From a bacterium (GTDB taxonomy: Bacteria; Patescibacteriota; Dojkabacteria; B142; OLB20), in the NCBI GenBank assembly GCA_037138855.1, contig JBAXHO010000001.1:6105-70104 (forward strand): a DNA stretch of 64,000 nt, given 5' to 3'. Position 1 is the stretch's first letter, and each line of letters begins with the position of its first letter. This document shows, one piece after another, positions 1 to 59,954 of the stretch. Under the pieces are notes generated by a model. That model saw only the letters and a list, made by a program, of their open reading frames with translations. It had not been told where the DNA came from and did no database searches. The position numbers and the translations under genes are program-made.

Positions 1-3000
1 GTGGTGTCCTGGTGAAGTTGCTGAATATGGTTATACATTTCCTGATCAGCAGGAAGTAAGTTGGGTAGTTGGTAGCTCGTAGCTCGTAGCTGAGATTCGA
101 GATTCGAGATTCGCAATTCGAAGTCTTCCAGATTCATGAGAATAAATTTCCCGGCATTCCAGAGTTTGTTGCAGAAATTACGGTTGTTGGCGATTTTTTC
201 TTCATATAGTCGGTAATTTTGACCAACAGAATTTCCCAGGATAAAACTGAGGCGGAGGGCATCTGTCCCGTATTTCTGCATCATTTCAAAGGGGTCAATC
301 CCATTTCCTTTAGATTTACTCATTTTAACGCCATTTTTATCAAGCACTAGTCCATGGAGGTAGACATCTTTGAAAGGAGCTATTTTTTCACCTGGTTGTT
401 GATCCCAGGGTTTGCCGTTTGACTTCTGTAGTTCTTTGGCAGCGCGGTAAGGATTGAGTAACATCATTCTAGTCACCCAGAAAAGCAAGATATCCCAACC
501 TGTTTCCATTACTTGGGTCGGGTAGAAGTCCTGATAGTCATTGACACCACTTGCTTTGAGCGTCAAATATGGCCATTGACCGGAAGAAAACCAGGTGTCG
601 AGGACGTCGGAATCTTGATTCCAGATCGGTGACCGGTTATCGGTGACCGGTAATCGGAAGGGAAAGGAATTGATCTCGAGATTGTTGATTTCGTGGGCGC
701 GACTTGCGGCGGGAGTTTCGCCACCAAGTTCTCTTTTAAATACCCGAATTACACCGGAATGGGTAACAATGAGTATTTTTTTGTGGGCATATTTTTGTTT
801 AATGTCAGCGATGAATTCTTGGACACGGGATTCAACTTCTTGGATGCTTTCTCCTCCCGGAATAGTTTCCTGGTAGTTGGCGTCGTTGGCTGAGGTGAAT
901 TCAGGATATTTTAGCTCAGCTTCCTGCCAGAGTAGTCCTTCTAAAATGCCGAAGTTACGTTCTTTCAGTCGATCATCAGTAATTACTTCCAAGCCAAGCT
1001 CTTTGGCAATGATTGTCGCGGTAGTATAGGTTCTTTTTAACGGTGAACTGATAATTAAATCATAGCCGGTATTTTCAGACTTTAGTTTTTTAGCCAATAA
1101 TCCAGTCTGAGTGACACCATTGGCATTGATTTGAGAATCATTTTGACCTGAAATTCTGCCAATATGATTATTATCTGTTTCCGCATGGCGAATCACGTCA
1201 AGAGTTTCGCTTTGAGAATTGGGATTATCGAGTCCCACATAGAGCAGATCTTGATAATCTGAGTTTTCTGAAATGGTTTTACCGGCAATTTTTTCGCGAA
1301 CTACACCATTTTCATCAATAAATTGTTCATGAGTGCCTTTGTACCAAACTGGAATCCGATAACCCCACCAGAGTTGTCTGGTGATACACCAGTCTTCCGG
1401 CGTATTCATCCAGTCAAAATAAGTTTTCTTTTTGCCTTCAGGCATAATTTCAGTAAAACCTTGTTCGACAAGTTCTTTTGCTTTGGCTTTCAAGGGTTTA
1501 GTATCGACAAACCACTGATGAGAAACTAGTGGCTCGATTGGATGTTTGCAACGTTCACAGATTCTGATGCGGTTTTCATATGCAGTATCAATGGAAATCA
1601 GCATCCCGGCAGTTTTCATATCTTCAAGCATTGTCTTTCTAGCTTCATCGGCTTTCATGCCATTATATTTACCAGCCAAATGGTTCATGGTACCATCGAA
1701 ATTGATTACTTGTTTCTCCGGCATACATTCAGTTTGATGACGTTTAGCAATATCCCAGTCTTCCATGGCATGAGCAGGAGTAATTTTGAGTGATCCTGTT
1801 CCAAATTCAGAATCCACTGCTTGATCGCCAATAATATTTAGTTTTGTTGTACTTGTAATAGTTCGAACTGCAAAGCTTTTACCGAGGAATTCCTGATAAC
1901 GCCAGTCATCAGGATCCACTGCAATAGCTGTATCGCCAAAGATCGTTTCCGGTCGGACAGTTCCGATGATAAAGCCATTATTGTAAAATTTATCTTCAGG
2001 ATAGTCAGCAAATTTAATGATATGTACTCCGGCAAAATGCTTACAATAATGCAGGAAAAGTTTTTCTAGTTCATCCTGCAACTCGTTAAGATTTTTTTCA
2101 GGATTAATTACAATTAATTTGTAATCTTTATCGAAACGCATCATGATCGCTTCAGCTTTTCCAGTTACCTTATCACCCTTTTTGAGATTATCAAATCCCA
2201 AAATCCAGGCATCTAGATCTTCACCATCATTGGGATTTTTTTCACCAGCAATATAGCCATAATAATCAAAGGGCCATTGATATTCTTCACCATTTTTTGT
2301 GGTGAATTTATCTCCTTTGCTTCTTTCGACAGTAACTTCAATTTCTTTTCCGGCAAATTTATTTTTTAGGCTAACTGCATATGGTTCGGCATCGATTAAA
2401 CCATATTTAAAATAGATAAATGGGCTTTGACTGTCTTTAAATTCAGTGTCAATATCCGCAAGAGCAGAGGAACAGCGGGGACACCAGTTAATGATTCGCT
2501 TCCCACGATAAATCAGACCATCTTCGTACATCAGGATAAAGGCCTTCAGTACTTCATCGACAATTTTTGGATCCAGTGTAAATAATTCTCTCTCAAAATC
2601 TGCTGATAAGCCGATTTTTTTCTCCTGATTACGCGCTGTAGCAGAATTGTCCATACAGAATTTATAGCAGGCTTTATAGAAAGTTTCTCTCCCTAAGTCT
2701 TTTTTACTTTTACCTTTTTTCGCCAGTTCCTTTTCAAAAACAACTTCTGTCTGAATACCAGCATGATCTTTGCCAGGTAGTAGCAATACTTTTTTACCTA
2801 ACATTCTCTGATATCTACCCATTAGATCCTGGTAAGCATAACCGGACATGTGTCCGAGATGAAGGTTGCCATTGGCATTGGGTGGGGGCAGGGTAATCAT
2901 GAAACTTTCCCGCTCAGGCAGGTGAGCGCTCGAAAGTTCTCGATCGCTTGTGTATTCCGGAGCGTAAAAATTATGATCCAGCCAAAATTTCAGCATCTCT

Positions 3001-3041
3001 GCTTCAGTTTCGGATGGTTTGTAGGGTCCTTTGGGGAGCAT
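1..3041 (-). CDS. valS: Valyl-tRNA synthetase; start codon at 3041-3039, the ORF runs off the window start (3' end of the gene lies beyond position 1)
   Basis: Translating the minus strand from ATG at 3041 gives MLPKGPYK...PPPNANGNLHLGH (HIGH motif), ...INWCPRCSSALADID, ...GTGSLKITPAHAMEDWDIAKRH, ...HGLVLDKNGVKMSKSKGNGIDP (KMSKS), ...DALRL..., NKLWNAGKFILMN. The frame stays open to position 1. It is absent from the ORF track only because there is no stop inside the window. Confidence 0.9.
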   Translation of the reverse strand, partial: MLPKGPYKPSETEAEMLKFWLDHNFYAPEYTSDRELSSAHLPERESFMITLPPPNANGNLHLGHMSGYAYQDLMGRYQRMLGKKVLLLPGKDHAGIQTEVVFEKELAKKGKSKKDLGRETFYKACYKFCMDNSATARNQEKKIGLSADFERELFTLDPKIVDEVLKAFILMYEDGLIYRGKRIINWCPRCSSALADIDTEFKDSQSPFIYFKYGLIDAEPYAVSLKNKFAGKEIEVTVERSKGDKFTTKNGEEYQWPFDYYGYIAGEKNPNDGEDLDAWILGFDNLKKGDKVTGKAEAIMMRFDKDYKLIVINPEKNLNELQDELEKLFLHYCKHFAGVHIIKFADYPEDKFYNNGFIIGTVRPETIFGDTAIAVDPDDWRYQEFLGKSFAVRTITSTTKLNIIGDQAVDSEFGTGSLKITPAHAMEDWDIAKRHQTECMPEKQVINFDGTMNHLAGKYNGMKADEARKTMLEDMKTAGMLISIDTAYENRIRICERCKHPIEPLVSHQWFVDTKPLKAKAKELVEQGFTEIMPEGKKKTYFDWMNTPEDWCITRQLWWGYRIPVWYKGTHEQFIDENGVVREKIAGKTISENSDYQDLLYVGLDNPNSQSETLDVIRHAETDNNHIGRISGQNDSQINANGVTQTGLLAKKLKSENTGYDLIISSPLKRTYTTATIIAKELGLEVITDDRLKERNFGILEGLLWQEAELKYPEFTSANDANYQETIPGGESIQEVESRVQEFIADIKQKYAHKKILIVTHSGVIRVFKRELGGETPAASRAHEINNLEINSFPFRLPVTDNRSPIWNQDSDVLDTWFSSGQWPYLTLKASGVNDYQDFYPTQVMETGWDILLFWVTRMMLLNPYRAAKELQKSNGKPWDQQPGEKIAPFKDVYLHGLVLDKNGVKMSKSKGNGIDPFEMMQKYGTDALRLSFILGNSVGQNYRLYEEKIANNRNFCNKLWNAGKFILMNLEDFELRISNLESQLRATSYQLPNLLPADQEMYNHIQQLHQDT

Positions 3042-3347
3042 AATAAAATCATAAAAGATAAAAGATAGAAGTTAAAAGATAAAAGAATAATACCTTAATA
3101 ATTATTGACTTTTAACTATTAGCTTTTAGCTATTAACTTTTTCCACAAAAAATCCCCACACAACTATCAATCTTGATAATCATATAGGGACCTAGTAAAT
3201 CGGTGGTTCCACCCTAATTCCAATTAAATTTAATTAACTGGCTCTTGAATAGCGATAACGGGCTGCCCGGAAGAATTAGCATTAAGGATTTTCTTCAGCT
3301 CCTGCGGTGACGTCTTTCGCAGTCTAGTGCTTTTAGTTATTAAATTG
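3042..3347 (-). promoter_or_regulatory. Candidate T-box riboswitch leader of valS with an extended -10 promoter (TGTGTTATAAT at 3365-3355, minus strand)
   Basis: Minus-strand sequence GGAATTAGGGTGGAACCACCG (plus 3215-3195) matches the T-box consensus AAUUAGGGUGGNACCGCG. It is followed by an imperfect hairpin and GGGGAUUUUUUGUGG (terminator) about 100 nt upstream of the valS ATG. Leader length is ~300 nt. The specifier loop was not resolved. Confidence 0.55.
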
Positions 3348-25608: not shown

Positions 25609-27612
25609 TTAAACGTGATGTTGGAATTTTGGTATTAACAACAATAGGCGTAGCGTATGGACCTGTAATGGAGTGTTTGTAGGTACATTTGTAGTAACTA
25701 GAATAGTTGTATTAGTAGGTAAGATTGTAGCAGTGGTAATTGGAGTAGTTGTACTAGTAGGTAAGATTGTAGCAGTGGTAATTGGAATGATTGTACTAGC
25801 AGGTGTGCTTGTAGGTATGAGAGTTGAAACTGGTGTATTGGTTGGAGAGTTGGTTGAAGTTGGGACAGCTGTAGCAAATGGAGTAGGAGTAGGTGTGTCA
25901 GTCAGAGTGGGTGTTGGCGTTGGGCTGGGATTTTCCTGGTAAGCACCGATATTTGTCCCGTCATTAGCACTAGAAATGATTGGAGAGCCAATGTTCGGTG
26001 TACTGCATAAAATAACTCTATCTCTCAGTTGCTCAATCGGCAGAGCCAATAATTGCGCTCTGCTACACTGGCTTTCATCAGAAATTGTAGGATTGGTATC
26101 CATAAATTTAGAATGAAACTCATATGCCTGCTGTTCGTTATACGGGTCATTGTTTAGGCATTTGATAGCAAGAGAACCCAACCGCACTACACAGGTAGTA
26201 CTATCAGTTTTCGTTTTCGGATAGTATGCATTAAAATCGCTCTCAGCAGGTAAATAACCAGCATATGAATAAACATGATATTCACCTCTTGTAATGCCTG
26301 AGCCAGAGACTCTCCTAGCGCCTATCATCAAGTTATTCATTATTACATTTTCGATCCCAGGATAAGAAAGTGATTTTATACTGGTGTATTCACTAACATT
26401 TCCTGAAGTCTCACTGATACCAACAATAGTATTATTCTTTATGATATTTGCTGCAGATCTTTCAGTTATACTAATTCCATTGGCATTGTAAGTAAACTGC
26501 GCCCAGGAATAAAGATAATTATGGTGAATATTGTTTTCATAAGATGCCATATATGTTGGAACACTTTCGGAATTTAAGTATTTGTAGGCTTCGACTCTAT
26601 CGCTACCGGGGTCAGAAGGGGATTCACTCATTACCCGAATTCCATTGTTGGGAGAACCAACTATTACATTATCAGTGATTTCGTTATTATGTCCGCGGAC
26701 ATCTATCTCGCTTCCCTCAACAAACTGCCTAGTTGCTGATATAGTATTACCACGAACAATATTATTTCTTGTATCAGGCTTGAGCTCAACTGCCTCATTC
26801 CAGGAGTTAATAATATTATTATTTTCAATTACATTGCCTTCGACCCAGGTCCGGCTAAAGCCTTGTTCCGGAGACCAACAGTTTCCCGACACCACATTGC
26901 CGGCACTACCGACATAGAAGCTTTCATCTAAATTTTCAATTGTATTATTACTAAATGTACTATTTATAGTTTTGCATATTGAAAAACCTGTATTTTGACT
27001 ACCATCATGTTCTACTATGGTAACTCCATTTTTATCGTGTCTTCCTTTAACCTCACCAATACCGAGGCTGGAATAGTATGTGCAACCGGCATATTCGCCT
27101 ATTTCACTCGGGCTACAATTACCGTCAAATCCTAAATGAATGTAGTTATTTTTTATAGTTAGATCTGAAGAGATATAAATTGGAAATCCCGAACGGGAAA
27201 TATCAACAATCTCAAAGCCATCTATAGTAATATATGATGAATTTACCAGCCTAATGCCTGAATAGCCTTTGAGAACTGGTCTTTGATCAGGATCATAAGC
27301 CTTGAGAATAATATTATTTCCGAGTGCACCATGTTTATTGACAAAAGAAGCGACTTCGCCATAGATATTATTGTCAGACTGAGTATAATTCCCGGGTATT
27401 ACAAGAATTGTATCGCCCGGAGCGCTTGTCATATCTATGCCTTTCTGTATTGTCTTGAATGGAGTCGAAATTGATAAGCCTGAATTGGAATCATCTCCGT
27501 CAGGTGCAACGTAATAAGTAGAACTGGCAAAGACCGGAACTACAAAAAGGCATAATAAAAGAAAAGCACTAATTATGGCTAATCCGTATTTCAATTTGAT
27601 AACTGAAAACAT
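25609..27612 (-). CDS. Secreted right-handed parallel beta-helix (pectate-lyase/NosD-like) repeat protein with a TP-rich stalk; the 3' end appears frameshifted into the 25160-25600 ORF
   Basis: Signal peptide MFSVIKLKYGLAIISAFLLLCLFVVPVFASS. Repeated N-rich beta-helix rungs (NNTI, GNVIEN, NNIV). Tandem 42-bp DNA repeats encode PITTATILPTSTTT. The last ~20 residues look like out-of-frame garbage. Confidence 0.7.
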   Translation of the reverse strand: MFSVIKLKYGLAIISAFLLLCLFVVPVFASSTYYVAPDGDDSNSGLSISTPFKTIQKGIDMTSAPGDTILVIPGNYTQSDNNIYGEVASFVNKHGALGNNIILKAYDPDQRPVLKGYSGIRLVNSSYITIDGFEIVDISRSGFPIYISSDLTIKNNYIHLGFDGNCSPSEIGEYAGCTYYSSLGIGEVKGRHDKNGVTIVEHDGSQNTGFSICKTINSTFSNNTIENLDESFYVGSAGNVVSGNCWSPEQGFSRTWVEGNVIENNNIINSWNEAVELKPDTRNNIVRGNTISATRQFVEGSEIDVRGHNNEITDNVIVGSPNNGIRVMSESPSDPGSDRVEAYKYLNSESVPTYMASYENNIHHNYLYSWAQFTYNANGISITERSAANIIKNNTIVGISETSGNVSEYTSIKSLSYPGIENVIMNNLMIGARRVSGSGITRGEYHVYSYAGYLPAESDFNAYYPKTKTDSTTCVVRLGSLAIKCLNNDPYNEQQAYEFHSKFMDTNPTISDESQCSRAQLLALPIEQLRDRVILCSTPNIGSPIISSANDGTNIGAYQENPSPTPTPTLTDTPTPTPFATAVPTSTNSPTNTPVSTLIPTSTPASTIIPITTATILPTSTTTPITTATILPTNTTILVTTNVPTNTPLQVHTLRLLLLIPKFQHHV

Positions 27613-27950
27613 TACTTTTTCAAGATTTCTAATATAATAATCATATATGTTATAAAAAGTGTTAGCAAGATTATGACTTGAAATTCTGAACCAGAAATCC
27701 AGAAACTATTTTCTGGATAATTTTTTATGGTGAAATGTAAGATATCCTGCACCAAAGAGGAAAATTCTGTAGTTCAAGCTTATGAGATTTATTTTGGTAT
27801 TGGTAAGTAATGACAGGAATTATTGCTAAATAAGATTGCTTGCGCATTTTGGTGAAGTTAATTAATTTTATTATAGTCAAATTATCTTGAGAAAGAAAGA
27901 ATTATGCATTATTTAGCGCAATAGGAGAGAATGGTTTATAATTGATTGGA

Positions 27951-28006
27951 ATCTAGGAATCTAGGAATCTAGGAATCTAGGAATCTAGGAATCTAGGAAT
28001 CTAGGA
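27951..28006. repeat. Perfect tandem octamer (AATCTAGG)x7 in a divergent promoter region
   Basis: Read directly from the sequence; it lies between the starts of the 27612 (-) and 28068 (+) genes. Confidence 0.95.
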
Positions 28007-28067
28007 ATAAAGGATAGTTAAAAGTTAAAATTCAAAATTAAAATCTGTAAAGGAAATAAAAGAAGTT

Positions 28068-30346: not shown

Positions 30347-30530
30347 ACTGGAAGCAGAATGAAAATTGGAATTTGCAATTTAGAGGAAAATGAAATAGTT
30401 AGAAGTTAAGAGATAAAAGTTAGAAGAGGAGAAAATTCTCTAATTTTTTTGAGCTATTAGCTCTTAGCTTTTAACTTTTAGCTTTTTAATTAACTGTCCG
30501 CTCACTGGATACCAATTACCGTTTTAACCT

Positions 30531-34731: not shown

Positions 34732-35115
34732 AATAATATTTTAAAAAAGTAATAAGTATTAGTGTAGCAAATTGGTGATACAAAAGAAAAGGTGGATGAG
34801 TAGTTGAAATAAAAGATTAAAATATTAACGAGTTAACGGATTAATCCTGAAATATGTTCAGGAAAAAGGATTAAAATGAAAACTGGAATCCGGAATCTGA
34901 AATCAGTAAATTAATATTAGGTTTAACAGGAGGGTTTGCAGATCTGCAAACCGTGCGGCGAGCTCTTCTCCAAATTGCTATTTGCAAATTTCAAATTGCA
35001 TAATTCTTTCAGATTTCGGATTTCATAATAACGAATTTTGCTGATGTTACGGTTTTTTTGTGATCAAGGTGGTTGCTCTTACGTTTTAGCATCTTATCTT
35101 TTAAATTTTAAACTG

Positions 35116-35478: not shown

Positions 35479-35625
35479 AAAAACAATTTAAGATTAAAAA
35501 GGTAAGTAACGAATTTTGACTTTCGTGTTATAATTATTTTGTTCTTTGACAATCCTTTCGACGTTCCCCACCAGAAAATAAATTTTGAAACCGATAACCG
35601 GTCACCGGATACCGATTTTTTGGTG

Positions 35626-36113
35626 GGGGATGTATGGCTTCGACAGGGAATATTACTGGTTTTTGGCAAGCCGAGGTTTTTGGATACGGAGTCCTCGTAA
35701 AACAAACTGGTCCTCCGGTTATTTTGACCGGGCCGCATAATAAGCGTCAAAACCAAATTTCAAGATTTCGTTGCTGGCGTACAGGGCACAGTTGCAGCTA
35801 TCGCTGCTTCCTTTGCTCCTGCATTAGCTTTCAACGGAGTTGTTGCCTAAACTGGAGTTTCTCCAGGGATAAGCGCGAAAGCGCGGTAACCTTCTAGTGT
35901 TCTTCTCTCCTGATGGGAGGCACTAGGAGAAACATAGTCAGGATACAAGACTTAGCAATAGCATTCTGCTAAGTCCCACGCAAAATGTCTGCTGGCGGGA
36001 ATTGGTTTTAGCTTACTTCTATCAACTTCTCGTCTAAAAATCCAAGTAAGCTACGCTTGTACACTGAGAATCGGTAAGTTTTCTGGACGCGGGTTCGATC
36101 CCCGCCATCTCCA
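35626..36113 (+). ncRNA. ssrA: tmRNA (ssrA), one-piece, CCA not encoded; unusually long (~488 nt)
   Basis: 5' end GGGGAUGUAUGGCUUCGACAGGG (acceptor plus tRNA-like D region). PK1-like GCCGAGG...CCUCGUAAAAC. Ala-rich tag frame ...GTVAAIAASFAPALAFNGVVA followed by UAA. 3' end GGACGCGGGUUCGAUCCCCGCCAUCUCCA (T-arm plus acceptor). 5' GGGGAUG pairs with 3' CAUCUCC. Confidence 0.7.
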
Positions 36114-36127
36114 TAAATTTTGCCTGC

Positions 36128-39053: not shown

Positions 39054-39623
39054 CTATTTGGATTGAATTTTTAAAGTGAAATTGGTATCCAAAAGTAGCC
39101 TGCCTGGGAATCTGTCAAGCAATGATAAAGTTGCTTTTTGCTCTTTGCTTAAAAAAGAAATTAGAAAATAAGTGTTGCTCCCACTTGGTATATGCCCAGT
39201 AATAATTTCAGTATCTGCTTCTTTCTGTCGTTTAGTAATCCAAGATTTATCAACAGCGAAGATATTTTGGATGGTAAAGATGTTGATGAATAGATTGATA
39301 ATACCGACGAAAATGCCACCCATTATAGCAATCCCATAGAAGATAATGGGATAATTGAACTTGAAAACTAGTTGTATTATAAAAAGAAAGGCAGTCAACC
39401 ATATTGGGCCGACTAACATGGAGATAAATGATTGTAATATCACAGGTACTCGTTTATCAAAATATAGCTTTTTATCCGTTTCTACCATTGGAAGTGGTTT
39501 TAAATGAAAATATTTTCCAAAACTTAAACCTGATTTCCAAGTATCTATTAGTTTGATATTTGATTTGTTGATGATGGATTCTTCAGGAAAGAATCTCTGA
39601 ATAATGGTCGTCAGTTGTTGCAT
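39054..39623 (-). CDS. Hypothetical membrane protein (TM hairpin, possibly PH-domain YdbT-like)
   Basis: Two central TM helices; flanking soluble regions. Confidence 0.35.
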   Translation of the reverse strand: MQQLTTIIQRFFPEESIINKSNIKLIDTWKSGLSFGKYFHLKPLPMVETDKKLYFDKRVPVILQSFISMLVGPIWLTAFLFIIQLVFKFNYPIIFYGIAIMGGIFVGIINLFINIFTIQNIFAVDKSWITKRQKEADTEIITGHIPSGSNTYFLISFLSKEQKATLSLLDRFPGRLLLDTNFTLKIQSK

Positions 39624-45971: not shown

Positions 45972-46340
45972 TTAAGCAAGGAGCTTCTTAGCCTGAATAA
46001 TATCTGTGGAAATTTGTTGTTGCAGTTCCTGAAAGTTGGCAAAATCTTTTGGTGCTCTAATGAATCCTACAAGTCTGAATGCGATATTTTCGCCGTAAAC
46101 TTCAGAGATTTGGGCGAGTAAATGAATTTCACAAATCGTTTTTGTTTCACCGAGGATATATCGGGGACCAAGGTATAATACTCCAGGATAAATTTGTCCG
46201 GAGAGAGTAACTCTCACAGCATAAACACCTGGTTTAAAGTCAAAATCAACTTTGGTAAGATTCAGTGTCGGAAAGCCAATTGTCCGGCCGAGTTTATTGC
46301 CATGAATAATTTTGCTGTGAAAAATAGTATCAGGTATCAT
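45972..46340 (-). CDS. Riboflavin kinase domain protein (monofunctional)
   Basis: GNKLGRTIGFPTLNL...GVYAVRV...GVLYLGPR matches the RibF C-terminal kinase domain. Its start codon is embedded in a GTATCA repeat. Confidence 0.75.
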   Translation of the reverse strand: MIPDTIFHSKIIHGNKLGRTIGFPTLNLTKVDFDFKPGVYAVRVTLSGQIYPGVLYLGPRYILGETKTICEIHLLAQISEVYGENIAFRLVGFIRAPKDFANFQELQQQISTDIIQAKKLLA

Positions 46341-46558
46341 GTATCAAGTAGTAAAAATAGTAGCTGGTAGCTTGTAGCTCGTAGCTGAGAAAATCAGATT
46401 TCAGATTCCGGATCCCAGCTTTCATTTTTCCTAGATTCTTATCTTTTAACTTTTAACTAGTAGCTTCTAACTTTTCCCTCTTTTTCTTACCCAAATTGCA
46501 ATTTGCAAATTCCAAATTTCAAATTTCACTCTCATTCTGATTCCAGATTCCATTTTAT

Positions 46559-47464
46559 TCACCGTCTTCCGATTTTTACTACCTGAAAAATGCCAAAAAT
46601 TAAAATTATCATGCCAATGATTTGCGTGAGTGAGTAGGATTCGTGAAAATAAAAAATTCCAATGAGAAATGCTGACGCTGGCCAGGCAAGCTCGGCAATG
46701 GTGCTGATCCGGGCTGGCGTGTGACGCAGTCCGTAATAGTAGATTCCGGTTCCTACAGCTCCAGCCGAAAGCGTGACTATGAGAAGAGAAATAATTTGAG
46801 TTGGAGTGATCGCCATACCTGCGACTTGTCCGCCCTGGAAAAAATAAATAATTAAACTGGTGATTGCTGCAATAACGAAGCGGAGAAAAAGTACTTCCAG
46901 AAAGCCAGCTTCTTTGAGTAGAATTTTGGAAGTAGAAGTGGAGGCACCCCAGATCACACCAGCGAGGAGTGCATAAATTGCTGCAATGATCGTCTGGGAA
47001 TTATTTTGCCAGTTGATGCTGAGGTCTTTGAAACTAACGAGAAATGCTCCGATCATCGCGAGAATAGCCCAAGGGAGAAAGCGTTTGGAGATTTTTTCCT
47101 GTAAGAGAAAATAAGCAGCAGTGATTGCCCAGATTGGTTGCAATTGCTGCATCAAGACGACTGCTGAAAAGGGAATAAAATTAACTTTGGCAAGTGCTGC
47201 CGTATAGAGAATAGTTGCTACAGCACCGGAAAGTACTCCAGTGACAACTAAGGCCAGCCATTCAGCTTTGGTAAACTTTTTTAAGCTACGTTTTACTGCT
47301 GGTACAAGTGGCAGCATGAAAATCAAGCCTAAACTGTGCTCCCAGAAAACAATAAGTGGTGCTGGTAGAACATATAAACTACGACGTACAATCGCATCCA
47401 GACTCCATAAAATGGCAGCAATAATGATGAAGATGACTGGGTATTTAAATCTGGCTTTTGGCAT
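46559..47464 (-). CDS. EamA/DMT-family transporter (10 TM)
   Basis: Two EamA-like halves; 301 aa. Confidence 0.8.
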   Translation of the reverse strand: MPKARFKYPVIFIIIAAILWSLDAIVRRSLYVLPAPLIVFWEHSLGLIFMLPLVPAVKRSLKKFTKAEWLALVVTGVLSGAVATILYTAALAKVNFIPFSAVVLMQQLQPIWAITAAYFLLQEKISKRFLPWAILAMIGAFLVSFKDLSINWQNNSQTIIAAIYALLAGVIWGASTSTSKILLKEAGFLEVLFLRFVIAAITSLIIYFFQGGQVAGMAITPTQIISLLIVTLSAGAVGTGIYYYGLRHTPARISTIAELAWPASAFLIGIFYFHESYSLTQIIGMIILIFGIFQVVKIGRR

Positions 47465-51509: not shown

Positions 51510-51650
51510 GAAGTGAATATATTTATATATTACATAAATTCTAAAAGTTTGTCGAAGAAAATTAAATTAAGATCGGTGTTCTACATTCGGTAATCGGTGA
51601 TCGGTGAACGGAAGATAGAATAGCACAATAGATTAGGAGTTTAGCACTCA

Positions 51651-58832: not shown

Positions 58833-59786
58833 TTGCCAATGGTTTTGTCGAAAGCTCTGAAAATTATTATTATCGTCCTTGTCGCAGTAGCAGTGATGTT
58901 GCTTACTGTTTTTTTATTGTTTGTCAGCGGGGTGACGCATGAGGTGCAGTTAATTATTTTTCCTCCGACAGCGACACCGCTGCCTACTATAACTCCGATT
59001 CCGACGCCTACGCCGACACCGACTTTGACGCCTACGCCGACACCGGATTTGAATAATTTTGCGAAAGATTATGATTATCCGCCGAAAGAGCAAAATAAAG
59101 GGACTGTGCGTATCCCGGTTTTGACCTATCATCATGTCGCTCCGATCCCGGATCAGCAAAATATGCAGGCTTATTACGTCACGCCAGTGATGTTTGAAAA
59201 GCAGTTGCAGTACCTGAAAGAAAAAAATTATCGTACTTTGACCACCAGAGAGTTTCTCGAGCAAGTGAAAAGCGGTCAAAATCCCAGTCAGAAGTCGATA
59301 GTGCTCACTTTTGATGATGGTGCGAAAAATAATTATGATAATGCTTTTCCCTTGTTGAAAAAATATGGTTTTGTCGGTGTGTTTTACATCCCGACGAATA
59401 AAACAGGTATAACCCAGACACAGCTCAAGGAAATGGCTGATGCTGGTATGGAAATTGGCTCACATTCCAAAACTCATCCGGATCTCAGTAAAATTTCGGA
59501 TGACGCGAAATTAACCGATGAAATTATTAATAGTCGGGGGATGCTGCAGAGCTGGACCGGACAGGATATTTATAGTATTGCCTATCCCGGTTGTACTGCA
59601 AATTCTCTGAACATCAGTTATGTGACCAAAGCCGGTTATCAGGTGGGTTTTTCCTGTGGAAAAGTGATTGATCATAAATATTCGCAGCGTTATGTCCTTT
59701 CCCGGATCCATGTTTACAGTAATTTGGATAATTTTAAGAAAATCCTCTCTGGTTTGGGAGAATTTACGACGGAGTATGGGGATTGA
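58833..59786 (+). CDS. Polysaccharide deacetylase (CE4/NodB family), membrane-anchored with a TP-rich linker
   Basis: IVLTFDDGAKNNYDNAFPLL (TFDDG), GMEIGSHSKTHPDL (H-x4-H), PTPTPTPTLTPTPTP linker. Confidence 0.85.
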   Translation: MPMVLSKALKIIIIVLVAVAVMLLTVFLLFVSGVTHEVQLIIFPPTATPLPTITPIPTPTPTPTLTPTPTPDLNNFAKDYDYPPKEQNKGTVRIPVLTYHHVAPIPDQQNMQAYYVTPVMFEKQLQYLKEKNYRTLTTREFLEQVKSGQNPSQKSIVLTFDDGAKNNYDNAFPLLKKYGFVGVFYIPTNKTGITQTQLKEMADAGMEIGSHSKTHPDLSKISDDAKLTDEIINSRGMLQSWTGQDIYSIAYPGCTANSLNISYVTKAGYQVGFSCGKVIDHKYSQRYVLSRIHVYSNLDNFKKILSGLGEFTTEYGD

Positions 59787-59954
59787 GAGACGGTAACCGG
59801 TGATCGGTGAGCGGAAGAAGGATGAGTATCAAGTAGCAAGTATCAAGTAGTAGTAAGAAAAACGTTAGTGAACTATTACTAATGTTAAGGTACTATCAAG
59901 TAATTTTTTATGCTATATTATTATGCGCAAAGTTAAATTTAATAAATTGCTAAA

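Follow-up and report, generated by a model that had tools for sequence, protein, structure and literature searches.

Heptanucleotide repeats of otherwise intergenic families within the valine-tRNA ligase gene of a Dojkabacteria genome

In many bacteria, long simple sequence repeats are most commonly built of heptanucleotide units, for which an origin by polymerase slippage has been proposed, and where such repeats occur in open reading frames (ORFs) they are expected to have lengths compatible with the frame (Mrazek et al. 2007, as summarised in PMC4679880). The GGGNATC repeats of Xanthomonas and Nostoc are scarcer within ORFs and prefer the gaps between co-directional ones (PMC4692102), and the TAACTGA direct repeats of marine Beggiatoaceae are found in two to six copies between genes, near start codons, in a study that also considers how stop codons limit the orientation in which a repeat may enter an ORF (PMC4679880). 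Here, we describe heptamer arrays at two sites within valS, the gene for valine-tRNA ligase (ValRS), in a 64-kb stretch of DNA from a member of the Dojkabacteria (assembly GCA_037138855.1, contig JBAXHO010000001.1, positions 6,105 to 70,104), which has a GC content of 35.5% and is referred to in full as the window. Outside valS, the heptamer families to which these units belong are intergenic in the window. The analysis covers these 64 kb of one genome, and the protein structure discussed below is a prediction.

The valS gene lies on the minus strand (1..3041), with its start codon at position 3041 and a reading frame that runs without a break down to the window edge. The window holds residues 1-1013 of 1120, and the 3' end lies beyond its start. 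The encoded protein is 100% identical to P0001, which is MEI7578408.1 (1120 residues, 'MAG: class I tRNA ligase family protein [bacterium]'). It matches Pfam tRNA-synt_1 with an E-value of 4e-111 and NCBIfam valS TIGR00422 with 647 bits (cut-off 612), and can be aligned to the Thermus ValRS 1GAX (E 7e-42). It is a class Ia valine-tRNA ligase, in which the core motifs PPPNANGNLHLGH, DVLDTWFSS and KMSKSKGN flank the inserts. Its relatives belong to Candidatus Dojkabacteria (WS6, candidate phyla radiation, CPR), and those retrieved in a scan of contigs are 56-65% identical to it.

The first site (63..122, minus strand) encodes residues 974-993, FELRISNLESQLRATSYQLP, in the loop that opens the anticodon-binding helical domain and connects the NKLWNAGKF helix to the first long helix of its bundle. 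It is made of two adjacent blocks. Block A (92..121, minus strand) contains three perfect copies of GAGATTC and one GCAATTC, scored by Tandem Repeats Finder as GAGATTC x4.3, and on the coding strand reads GAATTGC followed by three copies of GAATCTC, which give ELRISNLES. Block B (65..91, minus strand) contains GTAGTTG and 2.9 copies of GTAGCTC, and on the coding strand reads AGCTACG/AGCTACC/AACTACC, translated as ..QLRATSYQL... The same program detects the GTAGCTC copies at 72-91 with 100% matches, and the degenerate GTAGTTG unit (65-71) lengthens the array to position 65. An earlier note on this DNA had described arrays of GTAGCTC and GATTCGA in this place, and both are real, GATTCGA being a rotation of the GAGATTC unit.

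The second site (624..657, minus strand) contains about five copies of CGGTRAY. The individual units are CGGTGAC, CGGTTAT, CGGTGAC, CGGTAAT and CGGAAGG, and the coding strand reads CCGATTA CCGGTCA CCGATAA CCGGTCA CCGATCT. Tandem Repeats Finder scores it both as a 14-mer, ATCGGTGACCGGTA x2.4 (625-657), and with period 7, x4.9 (624/625-657). Translation of 624-656 on the minus strand gives RLPVTDNRSPI, residues 796-806, followed by WNQDSDVLDTWFSS. The translations of both sites are stop-free, so the arrays leave the valS frame intact, as the earlier note had stated.

In order to compare lineages, we aligned 51 ValRS of Dojkabacteria and read the lengths at both sites, which are strongly conserved among the relatives. 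The segment of site 1 from NKLWNA to LYDSF has 76 residues here against 69 in 43 of 50 relatives, and the segment of site 2 up to DVLDTWFSSGQ has 56 against 49 in 22 of the 31 relatives that carry a phosphatase insert (see below). The excess at each site is exactly seven residues, or 21 nt, or three heptamers, which is the smallest repeat increment that preserves the frame: since seven is not a multiple of three, only net changes of three units (21 nt, seven codons) keep valS readable. Site 1 had at first been credited with about 15 extra residues; the gain amounts to seven with respect to close relatives and about 14 with respect to the Thermus ValRS (1GAX), than which the site is 14 residues longer. 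The residues of either insert are present in no ortholog among the 51 aligned sequences, and the idea that they represent an ancestral sequence therefore fails. Both segments are lineage-specific, the point that the earlier note had wanted checked by such an alignment, and its interpretation is supported, with corrections to the number of residues gained at site 1 and to the setting of site 2.

Arrays of period 7 are abundant in the window, where they account for 24 of the 56 Tandem Repeats Finder rows. A stringent periodicity score retains seven period-7 arrays, two of which are the site-1 arrays of valS, whereas shuffled sequences yield none and the periods 6 and 8-12 yield 0-1. About 86% of the window consists of ORFs, and 20 of the 24 period-7 rows lie in or straddle the intergenic gaps, i.e. 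in the approximately 14% of non-ORF DNA. Three of the rows inside ORFs are in valS and one, a weak row of 2.7 copies at 39131-39149, is in another ORF; the earlier statement that such elements occur elsewhere only between genes thus holds for the window with the exception of this row. Arrays favour the gaps between co-directional genes (10 of 22 such gaps carry them, against two of 13 divergent and none of four convergent ones), as do the heptamer repeats described in PMC4692102. When rotations and reverse complements are grouped together, about six families of units can be distinguished (ATAAAAG/TTAACTW/TTAGCTW, AGTATCW/AGTAGCW, GTAGCTN, CAAATTG, SAGATTY/GGAATCT and CGGTRAY), and 30 of the 276 pairs of arrays are within one mismatch of each other, where 2.9% would be expected. 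The valS arrays are among the most perfect of the window, with 100% and 94% matches against about 75-85% in most intergenic arrays, and these near-perfect copies suggest that they are recent or still in the course of homogenisation.

Each of the two sites has an intergenic counterpart. For site 1 this is the array at 46357..46420 (plus strand), composed of (GTAGCTN)x4, the junction GAGA and SAGATTY units, arranged and oriented as they are in valS. Positions 65-95 of valS and the intergenic stretch 46360-46390 are identical at 29 of 31 nt (BLAST E 6e-8), and a local alignment of valS 65-112 to 46360-46408 extends over about 50 nt with two small gaps and a score of 57, no other array region scoring above 28. 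The alignment takes in both blocks, and the junction GTAGCTGAGA is present at both loci. Searches of the window returned six matches to GTAGCTCGTAGCTC with up to two mismatches (0.07 expected) and five matches to GAGATTCGAGATTC (0.46 expected). For site 2, the counterpart is an intergenic (CCGRTYA)x4 array at 35588..35615 (minus strand), immediately upstream of the tmRNA gene, which shares with valS an exact 18-mer (35590-35607) together with the alternating CCGATAA/CCGGTCA pattern. Two further intergenic arrays, both on the plus strand, resemble site 2 with 85-90% identity (51588-51614 and 59791-59810): (TCGGTRA)x3.6 at 51587..51614, and (CGGTRAN)x3 at 59791..59814, just past a stop codon. 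Both end in CGGAAG as site 2 does, and a search with CGGTGACCGGTWATCGG, allowing up to three mismatches, gave eight matches where 0.06 were expected.

The protein context of the two sites was examined with an AlphaFold2 model of the ValRS built from the alignment (mean predicted local distance difference test score, pLDDT, of 88.1). The sole stretches with pLDDT below 50 are residues 799-801 and 987-991, which both fall within the inserts, and the means of the 10-residue blocks 971-980 and 981-990 are 58 and 48. Site 2 is modelled as coil, and site 1 as a weak helix followed by coil. The encoded peptides are rich in E, S, R, T, N, Q and L, a composition suited to exposed linkers. The model fits the earlier suggestion that the repeats are tolerated as loop insertions. 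The earlier note, which had placed site 2 just before DVLDTWFSS, overlooked its setting: the segment does not belong to ValRS proper but forms the linker leading from an inserted histidine-phosphatase domain, His_Phos_1, back to the conserved W-x-QD-DVLDTWFSS. The domain (663..1196, minus strand; residues 616-793) matches Pfam PF00300 with an E-value of 6e-47 over profile positions 3-179 of 194; with its 178 residues it is complete, contains the RHAET and THSG motifs, and is located just before DVLDTWFSS. It is common to many Dojkabacteria ValRS and absent from others, and in relatives without it the preceding strand leads straight to W-x-QD.

Independent cases, with units unrelated to those of the window, were found in the valS genes of three other Dojkabacteria. 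In the ValRS P0021 (L004 752-4306, CAYSKC010000038.1), about 56 residues (roughly 8 x 7) are inserted near the N-terminus, after STAYV; the insertion is made entirely of AGGACAG x7, GAACRAA x5 and AGGATCA x6 arrays, and more arrays follow right after the stop codon. In two other relatives the in-frame array lies at the site-2 linker: P0027 (L016 6428-6453) contains (ACCTCGG)x3.7, encoding RTSDFGPRTSP, and P0058 (L019 6054-6074, GCA_015657915.1) contains (TCAACTC)x3.0, encoding TINSQLST. Arrays seem to have landed in this linker repeatedly, in three lineages and with three different units. Of the 28 Tandem Repeats Finder rows in the valS coding sequences of 15 genomes (50 kb), 14 have periods of 7, 14 or 28. 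Most relatives' loci are nearly free of period-7 arrays, which indicates that the repeat load depends on the lineage.

In our view, both valS features are probably specific to this lineage and arose when members of the genome's own heptanucleotide families were inserted, in frame, into two flexible linkers of the ValRS. Recombination or template switching between arrays would have brought repeat DNA of a resident family into the loop, as a copy or as a seed; there it would have been amplified and made uniform by replication slippage; and selection would have kept only outcomes that are in frame, free of stops and hydrophilic, at positions that do not depend on a particular length. In a coding frame, a unit would be able to survive only in its stop-free orientation, and this is the orientation present: in the frames in question, GAGCTAC, GAATCTC and CCGRTYA are without a stop, unlike GTAGCTC and CGGTGAC. 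We infer both the slippage and the copying, and for each of them there is evidence. The two-block composite in common with one intergenic locus, and the 18-mer in common with another, make it more plausible that sequence was copied in from another array than that each array was seeded locally and independently. As for the extra peptides, they most likely take no part in aminoacylation and are carried along neutrally.

Several observations weigh against this interpretation, or restrict it. The closest ValRS is just 62% identical, and the 90% cluster of MEI7578408.1 has a single member. At site 1, about 60 nt (eight units) are heptamer-periodic, yet the net gain is 21 nt, so that a simple addition of three units is not the whole history; the ancestral 17-residue loop has been largely overwritten by repeat DNA and not merely extended. 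The neutrality that we assume has to be set against a short helix, of low confidence, predicted at residues 978-987 within site 1, and the low pLDDT of the inserts stands in for disorder or exposure without measuring either. Finally, P0015, P0020 and P0039 have extra residues at these sites with no detectable heptamer array, and not every length change at these sites is demonstrably repeat-derived.

A purely local origin would dispense with transfer altogether: the arrays would have arisen by slippage from chance direct repeats in the ancestral loop codons, and their likeness to intergenic arrays would reflect a common preference of slippage. The copies within the valS arrays are perfect, as expected of such a process, and slippage is the mechanism proposed in the literature, as reported in PMC4679880. 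When three units are removed from site 2 the remaining sequence, ...CGATTACCGATCTGG..., holds a 5-nt direct repeat with a spacing of 7, and the protein (...FPFRLPIW...) regains the ancestral length. In addition, the linker arrays of P0027 and P0058 use unrelated units that have no second copy in their 11-kb loci. However, the units of the window recur at several loci well above chance, as seen from the 30 of 276 similar pairs. Site 1 matches 46360-46408 in two different adjacent blocks, in their order and orientation and in the junction, and site 2 repeats at 35590-35607 both the alternating 14-mer and the exact 18-mer. Such matches are hard to obtain from independent seeds. We regard a local origin as possible, though rather doubtful.

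The earlier note had suggested that the repeat families are mobile or expand by slippage. The units do match the intergenic families, but element ends, target duplications or linked enzymes, which strict mobility would call for, were not seen. If small mobile elements (MITE- or REP-like, or moved by a heptamer-specific activity) inserted as units, valS would have been struck twice. The dispersal of the families agrees with this, as does the composite match of about 50 nt between a coding and an intergenic locus. Many intergenic arrays are moreover inverted pairs that fold into long hairpins like those of REP and MITE elements, with z-scores of -6.0 (34882-35028, with a 19-bp stem), -3.7 (3045-3145) and -3.2 (30392-30490). 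In contrast, neither valS site has a remarkable RNA fold (z -0.8 and -2.1) or shows terminal inverted repeats or a target-site duplication, the copies vary in unit number and have no fixed ends, and no transposase can be linked to the arrays. A scan of metagenome contigs with the junction pattern GTAGCTNGTAGCTCGTAGCTGAGA found it in no related genome and in only two unrelated contigs of 62-64% GC. On the evidence of the 64-kb window, insertion of mobile elements as units seems unlikely. RNA structure was rejected as a cause of the coding arrays, the folds at the valS sites not being significantly stable.

One may go further and suppose that the arrays are composite copy-and-paste elements, consisting of heptamer blocks that are often hairpin-forming inverted pairs, and that as such, and not as passive products of slippage, they are able to colonise coding DNA. 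Because seven leaves a remainder of one on division by three, the frame could then always be restored by the gain or loss of one or two units. We consider this an improbable reading; if true, these elements would repeatedly supply proteins of the CPR, the essential ValRS among them, with new linker peptides.

It is very unlikely that the inserted peptides are adaptive, with the repeats as raw material for a new contact with the tRNA or a partner, or for tuning the length of the phosphatase linker. Both inserts are kept in an essential enzyme, a short helix is predicted in site 1, and the length of the site-2 linker varies in several lineages, but the residues are conserved in no relative, they have the lowest model confidence of the whole protein, the peptide sequence is dictated by the repeat units, and the near-perfect DNA copies argue for a recent origin over long-term selection. 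An artefact of sequencing or assembly, or phase variation that turns valS on and off by gain and loss of units, is barely conceivable and was rejected together with a pseudogene, for although tandem repeats can be mis-assembled and non-triplet repeats in ORFs are the hallmark of contingency loci (PMC2651432, H. influenzae), the arrays are at most 60 nt long and thus below read length, both sites are in frame with exactly +21 nt between conserved flanks, the same protein is on record in NCBI, JGI, ENA and Logan, and ValRS is an essential, single-copy housekeeping enzyme, in which tracts of three to four units are short for a switch.

Some observations on this ValRS concern its inserted domains. 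At the site of His_Phos_1, other relatives have Ser_hydrolase (PF06821) inserts and some have no insert. HAD or GNAT domains are present in yet other relatives. A second insert of about 130 residues (window ~2007-2399, minus strand, residues ~215-345) separates FKYG from the TVRPET motif of the editing region. Relatives have it too, and it is confidently predicted as a beta-barrel plus a helix, with pLDDT of about 80-95. It gives a weak, sub-threshold match to PF18823 'InPase' (E 0.0017), and by eye it resembles a family I pyrophosphatase (YGYI...DGEDLDA). Arguably, the phosphatase insert and the pyrophosphatase-like insert are more unusual than the repeats. A literature search, within the library that could be searched, found no paper on a ValRS-phosphatase fusion or on heptamer repeats in Dojkabacteria.

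Other observations concern the repeats of the window at large. The gaps with intergenic heptamer arrays include 3045-3145, 30392-30490, 34882-35028 and 46320-46560. The longest and cleanest repeat of the window is a perfect 8-mer array, (GGAATCTA)x7.6 with 100% matches, in a divergent gap at 27948-28008, which is related to the SAGATTY/GGAATCT heptamer family. Two in-frame repeats have periods that are multiples of three, one of 42 nt x2.6 at 25694-25804 in the ORF 25609-27612, and the other of 24 nt, or CCGACG x7.5, at 58995-59052 in the ORF 58839-59786; both have the appearance of ordinary repeats in Thr/Pro-rich linkers and not of heptamer-derived ones. The tmRNA gene next to the counterpart of site 2 (35626-36116, 112.7 bits) has the tag peptide AAIAASFAPALAFNGVVA, and an overlapping 141-codon ORF on the opposite strand is probably spurious. 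In the two contigs of 62-64% GC (L020 1990-2013 and L021 1254-1277), (GTAGCTN)x3 faces an inverted (AGCTACN)x3 about 30 nt away and can form a hairpin, and a GTAGCTN-like unit is thus present in a very different organism.

The valS arrays offer a clean natural example of a non-triplet repeat entering a protein, in which steps of three units add seven-residue modules to a disordered linker, and with them a small, AT-rich genome of a candidate phylum joins those of cyanobacteria, Beggiatoaceae, Xanthomonas and other bacteria in which heptanucleotide families are known. The understanding of how ValRS works is unchanged. On the practical side, heptamer arrays in ORFs are frameshift hazards for gene callers and assemblers, and they would be good strain-typing markers for these uncultured bacteria.

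The arrays have the properties of the heptanucleotide repeat class, namely three or more head-to-tail copies of 7 nt, an excess of period 7 and a mainly non-coding location. None of the named units (STRR1-3, TAACTGA and GGGAATC/GGGGACT, six in all) has a tandem dimer with up to one mismatch in the 64-kb window, and the closest are arrays of the TGGAATC-CGGAATC type, at two mismatches. The arrays are thus members of the class and not of a named family. The STRR heptamer units of Calothrix and Nostoc are CCCCAGT, TTGGTCA and CAACAGT. In the survey of long simple sequence repeats by Mrazek, Guo and Shah (2007), as it is presented in PMC4679880 and PMC4692102, the heptanucleotide repeats are, like those of valS and the window, short 7-nt tandems, over-represented at period 7 and mostly non-coding. 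The genomes it deals with are mainly large or GC-rich (Burkholderia, Xanthomonas, cyanobacteria, actinobacteria), whereas here about six families occur in a Dojkabacteria genome of 35.5% GC, with arrays inside an essential aminoacyl-tRNA synthetase. The cyanobacterial STRR and the GGGNATC repeats of Xanthomonas and Nostoc (PMC4692102) also comprise several families per genome, are intergenic with a preference for co-directional genes, and are few in coding DNA, but their units are absent here, the present arrays have no G-quadruplex potential, and the phylum is another. In Beggiatoaceae there is one dominant unit, for which a regulatory role has been proposed; in the window there are no TAACTGA arrays, and no such role is implied for the coding copies.

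The contingency loci of Haemophilus influenzae (PMC2651432) also have a non-triplet unit in frame, of which a single-unit change shifts the frame. The gene here is valS, which is essential and not one of the dispensable genes, usually for surface or restriction-modification functions, in which long mutable tracts of this kind are typical, and its tracts are short, with three to five units, so that they differ from contingency loci and were rejected as such. Lineage-specific insertions are known in aminoacyl-tRNA synthetases. One of these is the CAAD membrane anchor in cyanobacterial ValRS. Insertions of this type likewise place foreign sequence at the ValRS surface and keep the core motifs, but they are folded domains, whereas the repeats are seven-residue linker extensions, and a closer analogue is the His_Phos_1 domain next to site 2. 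Taken with these systems, the valS repeats are a fairly ordinary case of repeat-driven loop growth, of little surprise to specialists, in which the occurrence of such repeats in a candidate phylum, the three-unit rule and the recurrence at one linker in three lineages are worth noting.

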